Source: Escherichia coli
Lineage (GTDB): Bacteria > Pseudomonadota > Gammaproteobacteria > Enterobacterales > Enterobacteriaceae
Length of the DNA stretch: 53,345 bases
Strand: one strand, 5' to 3'
NCBI RefSeq assembly: GCF_003334405.1
Contig: NZ_QOWM01000021.1
In this document: positions 19,724 through 23,572 of the stretch, piece after piece
Layout of the letters: each line of letters starts with the position of its first letter
How positions within the stretch are numbered: the first letter of the stretch is position 1
The notes under the pieces: generated by a model
Told to the model about the DNA's origin: nothing
The model's input: the letters and a program-made list of their open reading frames with translations, nothing else
Database searches by the model: none
Translations under genes and position numbers: made by a program

Positions 19724-20434
19724 ATGGCGGAGAATCAATCCACCGTAGAAAATGCAAAAGAGAAACTGGATCGGTGGTTGAAAGATGGCATCACCACGCC
19801 GGGTGGAAAACTCCCTTCAGAAAGAGAGCTGGGAGAACTGCTGGGCATTAAACGTATGACGCTGCGCCAGGCGTTGTTGAACCTCGAGGCAGAATCCAAA
19901 ATCTTCCGTAAGGATCGTAAGGGGTGGTTCGTGACCCAGCCGCGATTTAATTACAGTCCGGAGCTGTCGGCGAGCTTTCAGCGGGCCGCAATTGAGCAAG
20001 GGCGAGAGCCTTCCTGGGGGTTTACCGAGAAAAACCGTACCAGCGATATTCCCGAGACGCTCGCGCCACTGATTGCAGTGACGCCATCAACTGAACTCTA
20101 TCGCATCACCGGCTGGGGGGCGCTGGAAGGACATAAAGTTTTCTATCACGAAACATATATTAATCCTGAAGTTGCTCCGGGCTTTATTGAACAACTTGAA
20201 AACCACTCATTTTCTGCAGTCTGGGAAAAGTGCTACCAAAAAGAGACGGTAGTAAAAAAATTGATTTTCAAACCCGTCAGAATGCCGGGCGATATCAGCA
20301 AGTATCTTGGCGGTTCTGCGGGTATGCCAGCGATCTTAATTGAAAAGCATCGCGCCGACCAGCAAGGCAATATTGTCCAAATAGATATTGAATATTGGCG
20401 ATTTGAGGCCGTAGACCTCATCATTAATCTGTAG
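19724..20434 (+). CDS. yihL: GntR-family transcriptional regulator YihL
   Basis: 236-aa ORF; N-terminal winged-HTH LPSERELGELLGIKRMTLRQALLNLEAE typical of the GntR family. Confidence 0.85.
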   Translation: MAENQSTVENAKEKLDRWLKDGITTPGGKLPSERELGELLGIKRMTLRQALLNLEAESKIFRKDRKGWFVTQPRFNYSPELSASFQRAAIEQGREPSWGFTEKNRTSDIPETLAPLIAVTPSTELYRITGWGALEGHKVFYHETYINPEVAPGFIEQLENHSFSAVWEKCYQKETVVKKLIFKPVRMPGDISKYLGGSAGMPAILIEKHRADQQGNIVQIDIEYWRFEAVDLIINL

Positions 20435-20441
20435 GTGTTTT

Positions 20442-21422
20442 ATGGTGACAATAAATAACGCAAGAAAGATTCTACAACGTGTCGACACTCTTCCTCTTTA
20501 TTTACATGCTTATGCCTTTCATTTAAATATGCGGCTGGAAAGAGTGTTGCCTGCTGATTTACTTGATATCGCAAGTGAAAATAATCTACGTGGCGTCAAA
20601 ATCCATGTTCTCGATGGCGAGCGTTTTTCTCTTGGTAATATGGACGATAAAGAACTCTCTGCCTTTGGGGATAAAGCCCGCCGTCTGAACCTTGATATTC
20701 ATATTGAAACCAGCGCCTCAGATAAGGCATCTATTGACGAAGCCGTCGCCATCGCGTTGAAAACTGGGGCATCGTCCGTACGTTTTTATCCACGTTATGA
20801 AGGTAATTTGCGCGACGTATTATCGATTATCGCTAACGACATTGCCTATGTACGGGAAACGTATCAGGACAGCGGCCTGACTTTTACGATCGAGCAGCAT
20901 GAAGATTTAAAAAGTCATGAGCTGGTGTCGCTGGTCAAAGAAAGTGAGATGGAATCTCTTTCCTTACTGTTTGATTTTGCGAACATGATCAATGCAAATG
21001 AGCATCCCATCGACGCTTTAAAAACGATGGCACCGCATATTACCCAGGTCCATATCAAAGATGCCTTGATCGTTAAAGAACCGGGTGGCCTGGGTCATAA
21101 AGCCTGTATTTCAGGTCAGGGTGATATGCCGTTCAAAGCGTTATTAACGCACCTTATCTGCCTGGGTGATGATGAGCCGCAGGTGACGGCATATGGCCTG
21201 GAAGAAGAGGTTGATTACTATGCGCCGGCGTTCCGCTTTGAAGACGAAGATGATAATCCGTGGATCCCTTATCGCCAGATGAGTGAAACACCATTGCCAG
21301 AAAATCATTTACTGGATGCGCGGTTACGTAAAGAAAAAGAAGATGCAATTAATCAGATAAATCATGTGCGTAACGTACTACAACAAATCAAACAAGAGGC
21401 AAACCATCTTCTGAACCACTAA
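20442..21422 (+). CDS. yihM: Sugar-phosphate isomerase/epimerase-like (TIM barrel) protein YihM
   Basis: 326-aa ORF 8 bp after yihL; family assignment (xylose isomerase-like TIM barrel) is from memory of the K-12 annotation, not from a motif I can point to. Confidence 0.8.
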   Translation: MVTINNARKILQRVDTLPLYLHAYAFHLNMRLERVLPADLLDIASENNLRGVKIHVLDGERFSLGNMDDKELSAFGDKARRLNLDIHIETSASDKASIDEAVAIALKTGASSVRFYPRYEGNLRDVLSIIANDIAYVRETYQDSGLTFTIEQHEDLKSHELVSLVKESEMESLSLLFDFANMINANEHPIDALKTMAPHITQVHIKDALIVKEPGGLGHKACISGQGDMPFKALLTHLICLGDDEPQVTAYGLEEEVDYYAPAFRFEDEDDNPWIPYRQMSETPLPENHLLDARLRKEKEDAINQINHVRNVLQQIKQEANHLLNH

Positions 21423-21523
21423 TAAGTTTTAACTCATACGCAGTTAATAAAACCATTCCATATGAATGGTCGGTATCTTATTGCCTTTAAAACAGTGATT
21501 TTAAAAATCGCTTAGGGGATGTT

Positions 21524-22789
21524 ATGCTCACGAAAAAGAAATGGGCGTTATTTAGTCTATTAACACTGTGTGGCGGTACAATTTATAAATTACCGTCGCT
21601 GAAAGATGCGTTTTATATCCCGATGCAGGAATATTTCCATTTGACCAATGGTCAAATTGGTAATGCTATGTCGGTAAACTCATTTGTCACCACAGTGGGC
21701 TTTTTTCTGTCTATTTATTTTGCCGATAAACTACCGCGCAGATACACCATGTCATTCTCACTCATTGCGACAGGATTACTGGGTGTTTATTTGACGACAA
21801 TGCCGGGGTATTGGGGCATCCTCTTTGTCTGGGCGCTATTTGGCGTTACTTGCGACATGATGAACTGGCCGGTCTTGCTCAAGTCGGTAAGTCGATTGGG
21901 CAATAGCGAACAACAAGGTCGGTTGTTTGGCTTCTTCGAAACAGGGCGTGGCATTGTCGATACCGTGGTGGCATTTTCTGCGTTGGCAGTATTTACCTGG
22001 TTTGGCAGTGGCTTATTAGGTTTTAAAGCAGGCATCTGGTTCTATTCCCTTATTGTGATTGCCGTAGGCATTATTATTTTCTTTGTCCTGAATGACAAAG
22101 AAGAGGCACCGTCCGTTGAGGTGAAAAAAGAAGACGGAGCATCGAAAAACACCAGTATGACCTCGGTGCTGAAAGACAAAACTATCTGGCTTATCGCTTT
22201 TAACGTCTTCTTCGTTTACGCGGTTTACTGTGGCCTGACATTCTTCATTCCATTCCTGAAAAACATCTATCTATTGCCCGTTGCGCTGGTGGGGGCTTAC
22301 GGCATCATTAACCAATACTGTCTGAAAATGATTGGTGGACCGATTGGTGGCATGATTTCAGATAAGATCCTGAAATCGCCAAGTAAATATCTATGCTACA
22401 CCTTTATCATTAGTACCGCTGCGCTCGTACTGTTGATTATGCTGCCGCACGAAAGTATGCCGGTCTATTTAGGGATGGCATGTACGCTGGGCTTTGGCGC
22501 GATAGTCTTTACACAGCGAGCCGTATTTTTTGCACCTATCGGCGAAGCAAAAATTGCTGAAAATAAAACAGGTGCGGCGATGGCGTTGGGTAGCTTTATT
22601 GGTTACGCTCCGGCGATGTTCTGCTTCAGTCTGTATGGCTACATTCTGGATTTAAATCCGGGGATTATTGGCTACAAAATCGTGTTTGGCATTATGGCCT
22701 GCTTCGCATTCAGTGGTGCGGTGGTTTCCGTAATGCTGGTTAAGCGTATTAGCCAACGTAAGAAAGAGATGCTGGCGGCTGAAGCTTAA
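21524..22789 (+). CDS. yihN: MFS-type transporter YihN
   Basis: 421-aa ORF, highly hydrophobic with multiple predicted TM segments. Confidence 0.85.
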   Translation: MLTKKKWALFSLLTLCGGTIYKLPSLKDAFYIPMQEYFHLTNGQIGNAMSVNSFVTTVGFFLSIYFADKLPRRYTMSFSLIATGLLGVYLTTMPGYWGILFVWALFGVTCDMMNWPVLLKSVSRLGNSEQQGRLFGFFETGRGIVDTVVAFSALAVFTWFGSGLLGFKAGIWFYSLIVIAVGIIIFFVLNDKEEAPSVEVKKEDGASKNTSMTSVLKDKTIWLIAFNVFFVYAVYCGLTFFIPFLKNIYLLPVALVGAYGIINQYCLKMIGGPIGGMISDKILKSPSKYLCYTFIISTAALVLLIMLPHESMPVYLGMACTLGFGAIVFTQRAVFFAPIGEAKIAENKTGAAMALGSFIGYAPAMFCFSLYGYILDLNPGIIGYKIVFGIMACFAFSGAVVSVMLVKRISQRKKEMLAAEA

Positions 22790-22794
22790 TTAAT

Positions 22795-22872
22795 GGCCGG
22801 ATGTGCTTAATCCGGCCAACGAAAACCGTATCAACCGTAGGCCGGATAAGGCGTTTACGCCGCATCCGGCAG
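22795..22872. repeat. REP cluster between convergent yihN and ompL
   Basis: ggccggatgtgcttaatccggcc hairpin and gtaggccggataaggcgtttacgccgcatccggcag. Confidence 0.6.
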
Positions 22873-22879
22873 TTTCACA

Positions 22880-23572
22880 TCAGAAGAAATACTTCGTCCC
22901 GATACGGATCTGGTTTTGCTCGCGGTGGTACGGTTCGACGTTGCGGTCTAACCAGCGCAATTCGAAATAAGGGAGCCAGTGTTCATTAATACGGTAACGG
23001 AAGGTGTTAGTGATTTCCCAATGATGATCTTTCCCGTTGCTACTATTAAAGTCATTCACTCGCATGAAGTAATGTGGCTCAAATGTATAGGAAAATTTAT
23101 CGGTGATTTTAAAATTCCAGTAGGTGCCAATTTCATAGGTGTCATTATTATCCAGTTCCCCGCTCAAATCTGTTGAACTATAGTTATTATGGTTATAGCG
23201 ATTTCGTACTGTCAGATTAAACCATGGTACAAATTTATAGTTGACGTCCAGATACACTGCACCACCCGAACCGATACTCTTATCATTAATTAAGCCACCG
23301 GGCTGGATGGTTAATTTATCGGTTGGTTTAAATAACGGATACCAGCCTTCAATTTCGTTATATCCATGTTTTAGTTCATCTTCTCGCTGAAAGTTGTAGG
23401 TATTGGTTAACATAATACCCGCGCCCATATCGAAGTTATAACCCACACGTAGCATAACCTCGCCCTGATCGGAGGCAAGATTATATGCCTCCCTGTTTTC
23501 GACGTATGCGCCAGCAAATACCGAGGCAGAGGTCAGAGAAGATAATAAAATTATTGCATTAATCTTTTTCAT
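22880..23572 (-). CDS. ompL: Outer membrane porin OmpL
   Basis: ORF-track frame trimmed to ATG 23572 (MKKINAIILLSSLTSASVFA signal peptide), 230 aa; beta-barrel-like alternation and C-terminal ...IRIGTKYFF. Confidence 0.85.
   Translation of the reverse strand: MKKINAIILLSSLTSASVFAGAYVENREAYNLASDQGEVMLRVGYNFDMGAGIMLTNTYNFQREDELKHGYNEIEGWYPLFKPTDKLTIQPGGLINDKSIGSGGAVYLDVNYKFVPWFNLTVRNRYNHNNYSSTDLSGELDNNDTYEIGTYWNFKITDKFSYTFEPHYFMRVNDFNSSNGKDHHWEITNTFRYRINEHWLPYFELRWLDRNVEPYHREQNQIRIGTKYFF

Follow-up and report, generated by a model that had tools for sequence, protein, structure and literature searches.

The yihL-yihM-yihN cassette of Escherichia coli: a repressor with a single strong operator, a TIM-barrel enzyme and a transporter that travel independently of ompL and the sulfoquinovose genes

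Introduction

The fructoselysine operon frlABCDR of Escherichia coli encodes a HutC-type repressor (FrlR), an epimerase with a xylose-isomerase-like triosephosphate isomerase (TIM) barrel (FrlC) and a dedicated transporter, and its substrate is a sugar derivative that bears an amine. The same logic of repressor, TIM-barrel enzyme and transporter is shared by the E. coli genes yihL, yihM and yihN (together yihLMN), which are the subject of this study and were analyzed in a stretch of 53,345 nucleotides from contig NZ_QOWM01000021.1 (RefSeq assembly GCF_003334405.1), called the window throughout. The two systems were compared by description, and YihM and FrlC by their shared fold; they differ in that frl needs a kinase and a deglycase besides, whereas yihLMN has a single enzyme. 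YihL reached only about 50 bits with PRK11402, which we take to be the FrlR model. PhnR, the repressor of the 2-aminoethylphosphonate regulon of Salmonella (TIGR03337), shares its architecture of a GntR and a UTRA domain with YihL, but YihL controls a TIM-barrel enzyme and a transporter of the major facilitator superfamily (MFS) and not phnSTUV/phnWX. The nearest solved structures by sequence are NagR/YvoA (E = 5e-13) and DasR (E = 9e-11), and the operator of YihL is likewise a palindrome of the type GT-N-TA-N-AC. However, these regulators sense N-acetylglucosamine-6-phosphate or glucosamine-6-phosphate and have amino-sugar regulons with many sites, while YihL has one strong site.

For YihM the described relatives are more distant. 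The isomerase Art22 (8z1i) and the 3-dehydroshikimate dehydratase AsbF (3dx5) are 14-20% identical, and both are devoid of the C-terminal region of about 70 residues that is present in YihM. The identity to the ketose 3-epimerases and to UlaE/SgbU is 11-16%, and no NCBIfam epimerase model was reached. The immediate neighbor of yihLMN in E. coli K-12 is the sulfo-EMP (sulfo-Embden-Meyerhof-Parnas) cassette ompL-yihOPQRSTUVW, which is under the control of CsqR (YihW). It differs from yihLMN by its own regulator, its induction by sulfoquinovose, its independent presence or absence and its different sequence diversity.

The genes are annotated in E. coli K-12 records of the MG1655 type, which were 100% identical over a 4.3-kb stretch and in which yihM is assigned to the sugar phosphate isomerase/epimerase family. 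On the plus strand, yihL (19724-20434) encodes a repressor of the GntR family, HutC subfamily, with a winged helix-turn-helix and a UTRA domain, yihM (20442-21422) a putatively metal-dependent xylose-isomerase-like TIM-barrel enzyme of an uncharacterized subfamily, and yihN (21524-22789) an MFS transporter that is presumed to import the substrate. An earlier reading of the letters alone (the sequence-only reading) had grouped these genes and the porin gene ompL into one uncharacterized module. The placement of the four genes was confirmed with minor corrections of coordinates, the compact regulator/enzyme/transporter unit is supported, and the domain matches agree with the sequence-only reading. 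The gap between yihM and yihN, noted as about 100 bp, was 101 nt, whereas that between yihL and yihM was 7 nt and not 8. The description as uncharacterized, with no assigned substrate, also still holds, as no functional study of yihL, yihM or yihN (b3872-b3874) was found in the searchable literature: yihL served as a linked kanamycin marker only (PMC4759930) or is mentioned in a list or survey (PMC9308461; PMC4797297), and a pangenome preprint on expression variants mentions yihM and gives no function. All three are thus among the E. coli K-12 genes without an assigned function. The type of system is ordinary, i.e., a repressor, an enzyme and a transporter of known superfamilies in an inducible operon.

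YihL Binds a Single Operator Upstream of Its Own Gene

A perfect palindrome of 12 nt, TGGTTTAAACCA, is located at positions 19699-19710 (strand-symmetrical), 14-25 nt upstream of the yihL start codon, and its exact sequence is unique in the window. It includes GT-T-TA-A-AC. The pattern GT-N-TA-N-AC is reportedly the operator consensus of the HutC subfamily (Rigali et al. 2002). Perfect palindromes of this length are not rare, with 19 in the window compared to 13 expected, and therefore the case for an operator rests on its conservation and on binding data obtained by chromatin immunoprecipitation with exonuclease digestion (ChIP-exo).

For the comparison of loci, a scan of one genome per species yielded 80 loci. 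The core GGTTTA[A/T]ACC was present upstream of yihL in all 63 loci with adjacent yihL and yihM, with flanks that had otherwise diverged. These loci cover gamma- and beta-proteobacteria (Enterobacterales, Aeromonas, Photobacterium, Neisseriaceae, Acinetobacter and Marinobacterium-like organisms) and include a paralogous version of the cassette that is described below. Two copies of the core were found upstream of yihL in the Marinobacterium-like organisms.

The ChIP-exo data were those of Gao et al. (2021; PMC8464067), who used myc-tagged YihL and cells grown in M9 medium with glucose and mapped the reads to NC_000913.2. Three YihL sites are given in the supplement. One, at 4058436-4058459, has a signal-to-noise ratio (S/N) of 60.46 and lies nearest to yihL; for the remaining two, near yqcC and yifB, the S/N is about 5. 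The yihL start is at 4060447 in NC_000913.3, and the offset to NC_000913.2 could be fixed to the range of 1975-1981. At every offset in this range the footprint of 24 bp holds the entire TGGTTTAAACCA palindrome. Operator-like sequences with up to two mismatches occurred elsewhere in the window at chance level, and none of them was placed so as to regulate ompL or yihO. Taken together, there is strong support that YihL binds a single palindromic operator upstream of its own gene, and that this is essentially its only strong genomic site, which makes YihL practically an autorepressor with one target. This operator had not been part of the sequence-only reading.

A weak sigma-70 promoter can be predicted at 19661-19690 on the plus strand, with the -35 hexamer TTGCTT (19661-19666), a spacer of 18 nt and the -10 hexamer TAAGAT (19685-19690). 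It was read by eye and is too weak to be detected by the consensus scan. Relative to the operator, both hexamers keep their positions in Citrobacter, Pluralibacter, Yokenella and Raoultella. As the operator would lie over the predicted transcription start, YihL would repress yihL, yihM and yihN together, presumably by occlusion of this start.

Several further features were observed around the operator. Its right half GTTTAAACC and the Shine-Dalgarno region of yihL, GGATTAAAC, form an imperfect inverted repeat on the plus strand (19701-19722; 8 of 9 positions complementary), which as RNA has a folding energy of -5.6 kcal/mol. The downstream TGGATTAA is likewise kept in many genera, and this region could be a second half-site or part of a hairpin in the 5'-untranslated region (5'-UTR) that affects translation. 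In the paralogous cassette the operator has the variants TTGGTTTAAACCAG or TTGGTTTATACCAG. Upstream of the yihL homologue of Aeromonas (locus L003, around 8960-9030) intergenic tandem repeats of the hexamer/heptamer CTGCTT/CTGCTTT were found.

The Cassette Is Independent of ompL and the Sulfoquinovose Genes

The order yihL-yihM-yihN was found in about 60 retrieved loci that belong to many genera, and in the scan it was present in all loci with a YihM identity of at least about 58%, with the exception of Pseudogulbenkiania (L043). For loci with a high G+C content the simple calling of open reading frames gave spurious antisense frames (clusters c36, c54 and c56), which were disregarded. In every enterobacterial locus examined the neighbors of the YihL gene were yihM and yihN, and it was not linked to phnSTUV or phnWX. 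In Morganella an exact-protein look-up revealed genes for a GntR/UTRA, an AP_endonuc_2 and an MFS_1 protein in this order beside the eut operon, and in Aeromonas and Serratia the same order was found in other, unrelated neighborhoods. No porin or sulfoquinovose genes were nearby in these three genera. In the scan, ompL/yihO adjoined the cassette in four loci only, namely in Escherichia whittamii and three Citrobacter loci, while in more than 50 loci the cassette was present without ompL/yihO within 8-10 kb.

The same independence was seen within E. coli. Of 5426 complete genomes, 4239 contained yihLMN at a coverage of at least 80%, 3860 contained ompL and 3489 had the contiguous block, and about 18% of the genomes were devoid of any match to the cassette. 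In strain WB61 typA is followed by a remnant of yihN of 66 nt and then by ompL-yihO-yihP-yihQ, showing that yihLMN is cleanly deleted while the neighbors are retained. The identity of yihLMN was at least 95% in nearly all genomes, whereas that of ompL ranged from 80 to 100%, indicating different evolutionary histories.

The sulfoquinovose cassette has been defined as ompL-yihOPQRSTUVW in a study of 2025, in which RNA sequencing showed that ompL is induced on sulfoquinovose, with a log2 fold change of 7.29, as are yihO-W (PMC12608037). Neither the text of that study nor its Table S4, which compares sulfoquinovose with glucose, lists log2 fold changes down to 1.8 and may not be exhaustive, contains yihL, yihM or yihN. 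The co-expression of yihLMN with the sulfoquinovose cluster that had been proposed as a check is not supported by the published table, which lists ompL and none of the three genes. In addition, YihL has no ChIP-exo site in the sulfoquinovose cluster (PMC8464067). The OmpL protein matched the NF007434 equivalog of the KdgM family over its full length with 472.4 bits (cutoff 288).

These results show, or at least support strongly, that yihL, yihM and yihN move as one cassette and do so without being tied to ompL or the sulfoquinovose genes. The inclusion of ompL in the module had to be given up: ompL is convergent to yihN and separated from it by a repetitive extragenic palindromic (REP) element, it is induced by sulfoquinovose, its adjacency is restricted to Escherichia and three Citrobacter loci, and it is kept in WB61. 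Within the sulfoquinovose cassette, ompL has the outermost position. A sulfosugar role had been suggested from the placement of the genes, and this suggestion is not supported in view of the unrelated neighborhoods in other organisms, the own promoter as the only strong site of YihL and the missing yihLMN entries in the sulfoquinovose table.

With respect to variation, 479 E. coli genomes had an ompL with 80-90% identity and 815 genomes one with 90-95%, a diversity that fits to the recombination-prone sulfoquinovose cassette described in PMC12608037. In several E. coli strains yihLMN was broken by insertion sequence (IS) elements (ISVsa5, ISEc47, IS903B). Furthermore, a paralogous cassette with the same gene order exists (loci L044-L047, L050-L057, L059-L061, L064 and L067), the proteins of which are 45-49% (YihL), 60-62% (YihM) and 50-52% (YihN) identical to those of E. 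coli. Some Citrobacter and Buttiauxella genomes contain the paralogous and the orthologous cassette together, and this coexistence suggests two related substrates.

Properties of the Three Proteins

YihL contains a GntR domain (PF00392, residues 8-70, E = 1.7e-19) and a UTRA domain (PF07702, residues 91-230, E = 1.6e-21), and together with the bound palindromic operator it has the features of the HutC subfamily. Its best NCBIfam match was PhnR (TIGR03337), with 183.4 bits over the full length but below the cutoff of 296.75, and the next-best families (HutC, PhnF and others) reached about 50 bits. Judged by these scores, YihL is a sister of PhnR and not a member of the PhnR family.

YihM matched AP_endonuc_2 (PF01261, E = 2e-8) and has both the xylose-isomerase-like profile and the (beta/alpha)8 fold. 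In the NCBIfam search with a threshold of E ≤ 0.001 it matched no family, and the epimerase models PRK13209, PRK13210 and TIGR00542 were not reached. Only 47 clusters (50% identity) with E < 1e-30 were found among 1.8 billion representative proteins, so that the family is small, and it is without a characterized member. A search of the fold database AFDB50 yielded only uncharacterized "xylose isomerase-like" proteins. When the PDB was searched with the family profile, the best matches were Art22 (8z1i; 1e-19), for which no paper was found in the literature search, and AsbF (3dx5; 1e-14). The motifs E151-x-H153, D178 and H204-x-K206 aligned with the equivalent motifs of AsbF, and E151, D178 and H204-x-K206 with those of Art22. 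The fold matches included ketose 3-epimerases and the L-xylulose-5-phosphate 3-epimerase UlaE.

The AlphaFold2 model of YihM is a TIM barrel (pLDDT, i.e., predicted local distance difference test, 95.9; predicted template modeling score, pTM, 0.93) followed by about 70 C-terminal residues that are specific to the family and include a long terminal helix (288-325). An alignment of 28 family members, with identities down to 26%, revealed 14 invariant residues (G51, S91, R114, E151, H153, E154, E160, D178, N181, P189, H204, R265, S281 and E298) and an almost invariant K206. The putative metal ligands are E151, D178, H204 and E254, and H153/E154 is the likely base, as far as this can be read from the alignment. 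The invariant arginines suggest an anionic substrate. A structure prediction for an active-site metal had been recommended in the sequence-only reading, and it yielded a confident barrel in which the metal-site residues E151, D178 and H204 are invariant. A loss of catalytic residues, which had been named there as a refutation, did not occur, as those of the fold are kept.

YihN contains an MFS_1 domain (PF07690, residues 33-364, E = 9.9e-27) and shows the highest conservation among the three proteins, with 72-82% identity across genera outside of the Escherichia/Citrobacter clade. It showed only a generic similarity to the models of PgtP and of the D-galactonate transporter, and the match to the PgtP model TIGR00881 of the organophosphate:phosphate antiporter (OPA) family, to which GlpT and UhpT also belong, was 72.5 bits compared to a cutoff of 407.75. 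A sequence search of the PDB with YihN at E ≤ 0.01 returned no chain, including none of the glycerol-3-phosphate transporter GlpT. A structure of GlpT is presumably part of this database.

Neighborhoods of Homologues and the Class of the Substrate

The likeness of YihL to PhnR (183 bits compared to about 50 bits for other families) points to a phosphoryl or phosphonyl group. Several neighborhoods of homologues hint in the same direction. Enzymes of the phosphodiesterase/alkaline phosphatase superfamily (PF01663) come directly after transporters that resemble YihN (56-58% identity) in Romboutsia and Desulfoluna. In rhizobia, YihM homologues with 45% identity are in an operon with an ABC importer that is followed by a HisN/IMPase-like phosphatase; the ATPase of this importer narrowly missed the cutoff of the PhnT2 model (435 bits compared to 458), and its binding protein weakly matched PhnS. 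The YihM homologue of Pseudogulbenkiania adjoins a gene resembling Na/Pi cotransporters.

Other observations hint at an amine. The inducer of PhnR is an amine. MocR/PdxR-type regulators, which have a domain that binds pyridoxal phosphate (PLP), take the place of YihL in 14 loci; these belong to alpha-proteobacteria, Sporosarcina and Actinomycetota. In three Photobacterium species the gene of a Rid-family (RidA-like) imine/enamine deaminase is located between the yihM and yihN paralogues (L050, 9100-9474; L052, 9101-9475; L053, 9108-9482), while P. aphoticum (L054) has no RidA-like gene at this position. In Crassaminicella thermophila (L092, 8001-14663) a clostridial cluster was found that comprises a YihN-like MFS transporter (58%), a Na/alanine symporter, a DeoR regulator and two tandem barrels followed by a RidA gene. 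The barrels were assigned to the YihM family by hhalign with a probability of 99.6-99.7%, and the cluster may represent the pathway in a more complete form.

Based on these neighborhoods, it is tentatively proposed that the substrate is a small anionic compound that is an organophosphate or a phosphonate, a specification that we regard as possible rather than probable. That it also carries an amino group is a still weaker proposal.

Proposed Function and Alternative Explanations

The explanation that we consider probable, albeit with considerable reservation, is that yihL-yihM-yihN is an autonomous, substrate-inducible operon for catabolism or salvage, which is only by chance located beside the sulfoquinovose genes. 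In this model YihL would hold yihL, yihM and yihN repressed until an effector binds to its UTRA domain. YihN would import the substrate, and R114, R265, R278 and K206 of YihM would be positioned to hold its anionic group. YihM, as a divalent-metal enzyme, would convert the substrate in one step into a compound that central metabolism accepts, possibly by an enolate-type isomerization, an epimerization or a beta-elimination. The hairpins between yihM and yihN, which are described below, might act at the RNA level by influencing transcript stability, processing or the translation of yihN.

Several observations weigh against this model or parts of it. The expression table mentioned above may be incomplete. 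The yihL promoter, the transcription start and the co-transcription of yihN are predictions. The candidate ligand E254 is a glutamate in 24 of the 28 aligned family members and a glutamine in the other four. The resemblance of YihN to PgtP seems to be at the level of a generic MFS similarity. The homologues that point to the substrate class are 21-58% identical and possibly have other specificities, and the link to RidA was drawn from only two lineages. Finally, one YihM homologue with 45% identity adjoins a shikimate-dehydrogenase-like gene, and another with 37% identity lies between genes for an FGGY kinase and a class II aldolase-family protein.

The latter homologue is in line with the alternative that survives best, a plain salvage of sugar phosphates without an amine. 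YihN would import a phosphorylated ketose or keto-acid, and YihM would be a 3-epimerase, racemase or isomerase of the UlaE/SgbU/EryC/OtnI type that feeds the pentose-phosphate pathway or glycolysis. The operon of the 37% homologue also contains a DeoR regulator and a GlpD-like dehydrogenase, an arrangement that presumably recalls the lyxK-sgbU-sgbE and the erythritol eryABC layouts. The fold matches of YihM to ketose 3-epimerases and UlaE are in line with such a function, HutC-type repressors often sense sugar phosphates, and the invariant arginines suit a phosphate group. However, no epimerase model of NCBIfam was reached and the identity to characterized epimerases is as low as noted in the Introduction, and the RidA genes, the MocR-type regulators and the similarity to PhnR would be left unexplained. 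Therefore, this alternative is regarded as unlikely, but it deserves to be kept in mind.

A more specific variant of the autonomous operon would take the RidA genes into account. Members of the YihM family would then be TIM-barrel enzymes that need a metal but no PLP, and their substrate would be an organophosphate or phosphonate with an amine, or a different anionic amino compound (e.g., an Amadori-type ketosamine), from which an isomerization or beta-elimination would release an imine or enamine. If this were true, RidA would hydrolyze the imine/enamine in the lineages with a RidA gene in the operon, and yihLMN would provide a route with one enzyme for an amino-organophosph(on)ate from the host or the diet, a compound whose use by E. 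coli is not known. This variant is considered rather doubtful.

It is also quite improbable that YihM is a dehydratase like AsbF or QuiC, acting on a cyclic hydroxy-acid resembling dehydroshikimate or quinate that is imported by YihN. In the profile search of the PDB, AsbF ranked second and its E-x-H, D and H-x-K motifs lined up with those of YihM, and the 45% homologue is followed by the shikimate-dehydrogenase-like gene. But the identity of YihM to AsbF is only 14-15%, the 45% homologue is the single supporting gene context that was found, and no aro, qui or pca genes were present beside the gamma-proteobacterial cassettes examined (Morganella, Aeromonas and Serratia). Moreover, to our knowledge E. 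coli K-12 is devoid of a protocatechuate pathway that could use the product of a dehydratase.

The proposal that yihLMN and ompL form an accessory module that takes up or processes a sulfosugar, a sulfoquinovosyl glycoside or a sulfonate made by the adjacent sulfo-EMP cluster is judged to be very improbable. The genes lie side by side in E. coli and three Citrobacter loci, YihN probably transports an anion, and the invariant arginines of YihM could hold a sulfonate equally well. Against this stand the more than 50 cassettes with no ompL/yihO within 8-10 kb, the retention of ompL-yihOPQ without yihLMN in WB61, the separate evolutionary histories seen in the different diversity of ompL and yihLMN, the lack of a YihL site in the sulfoquinovose cluster and of yihLMN in the expression table that lists ompL, and, as an indirect indication, the absence of Salmonella among the 120 closest YihM homologues listed and the 80 genome loci.

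Lastly, that yihLMN is a silent evolutionary relic without a current function in E. coli is hardly credible, because the missing cassette in about 18% of the complete genomes, the interruptions by IS elements, the weak promoter and the lack of a reported phenotype in the searchable literature are outweighed by its presence in 4239 of 5426 genomes with at least 95% identity, by the conservation of gene order, operator and catalytic residues across many genera, and by the strong occupancy of the operator by YihL in vivo.

For the autonomous operon, several consequences follow. Its separation from the sulfoquinovose cluster means that sulfosugars need not be the first guess, and the candidates are narrowed to small anionic compounds, which are perhaps phosphorylated or phosphonate-like and possibly aminated. 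Because YihL is a single-target autorepressor, a deletion of yihL or a fusion of the operator to a reporter would be a clean tool to find the inducer. The reaction of YihM, once found, would add a new activity to the superfamily of xylose-isomerase-like TIM barrels, and the cassette could then be annotated in the many bacteria of enteric and aquatic habitats that have it.

Hairpins Between yihM and yihN

Two hairpins were found on the plus strand in the spacer between yihM and yihN. The first one, HP1, is located at 21452-21470 and consists of arms of 7 bp and a loop of 5 nt (ACCATTC-CATAT-GAATGGT). It corresponds to the inverted repeat that had been noted in this spacer at 21451-21469; the repeat exists, but it lies one base further to the right. 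The second one, HP2, has the sequence AGTGATTTT-A-AAAATCGCT (21494-21512) and ends 2 nt before the Shine-Dalgarno sequence GGGGA of yihN (21515-21519).

The calculated folding energies were -7.3 kcal/mol for HP1 (z = -1.8) and -5.5 kcal/mol for HP2 (z = -3.9). In a comparison of 12 sequences from Escherichia, Pseudocitrobacter, Citrobacter, Pluralibacter, Yokenella and Raoultella the arms of HP1 were kept, the loops were variable and two compensatory pairs were present. By itself HP1 could be a chance event, as a perfect repeat of 7 bp with a loop of 3-8 nt arose in 5.8% of the shuffled spacers, and 26 of 528 tiles of 101 nt from the window also contained a repeat of this grade. HP1 was nevertheless counted as a real feature because of its conserved arms with variable loops and compensatory pairs. 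The arms of HP2 diverge and yet remain complementary in Pseudocitrobacter, Citrobacter, Pluralibacter, Yokenella, Raoultella and Enterobacter; this covariation was derived from folds of the individual sequences only, because the variable length prevented the pairing of HP2 in the MAFFT/RNAalifold alignment. In the equivalent spacer Morganella, Serratia, Buttiauxella and Acinetobacter have unrelated hairpins, and Aeromonas has none.

Three other roles of HP1 were considered and rejected. The consensus scan of the spacer revealed neither terminator-like nor promoter-like sites. This speaks against an internal promoter and, together with a stem that has G-C pairs at 3 of 7 positions and the 3' flank CGGTATCTTATT, against an intrinsic terminator. 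An operator of YihL, as might be implied by the inverted repeat, is not supported, since the sequence is not conserved outside of the Escherichia/Citrobacter clade, has no ChIP-exo site and the operator sits upstream of yihL. HP1 is most likely an RNA structure and not an operator. HP1 and HP2 would then be intercistronic RNA structures with a putative role in transcript stability, in processing or in tuning the translation of yihN.

Boundaries of the Locus

The upstream boundary of the yihLMN unit is formed by the 3' end of typA (bipA) and its terminator hairpin (19492-19560, plus strand). The terminator consists of a perfect inverted repeat of 13 bp followed by a run of T residues (19525-19554). 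The region 19492-19560 matches the enterobacterial small RNA (sRNA) STnc370 of Rfam with 55.6 bits, compared to a gathering score of 54. This STnc370-like 3' end of typA is directly upstream of the yihL promoter and could be an sRNA derived from a 3'-UTR.

At the downstream boundary, yihN and ompL (22880-23572, minus strand) are convergent, and ompL is followed on the minus strand by yihO, yihP and yihQ in that order. The spacer of 90 nt between yihN and ompL contains inverted repeats of the REP/bacterial interspersed mosaic element (BIME) type (22794-22870, no strand assigned), including a REP element at 22841-22870. When a query included this spacer, the median number of matches per E. coli genome was 21, compared to one for a query without it. 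The spacer also matched the REP-derived naRNA4 of Rfam below the threshold. The 30-mer of the REP element has three further copies in the window, while none were expected, so that the unit (GCCGGATAAGGCG...GCATCCGGC) occurs four times, at 12811-12840, 22841-22870, 38859-38888 and 53159-53188.

The mechanically called open reading frame of ompL (22880-23608, minus strand) takes as its start a GTG that precedes the annotated ATG by 36 nt and would encode 242 instead of 230 amino acids. The annotated ATG is supported because the NCBIfam model covers residues 1-230 of the protein that starts there.

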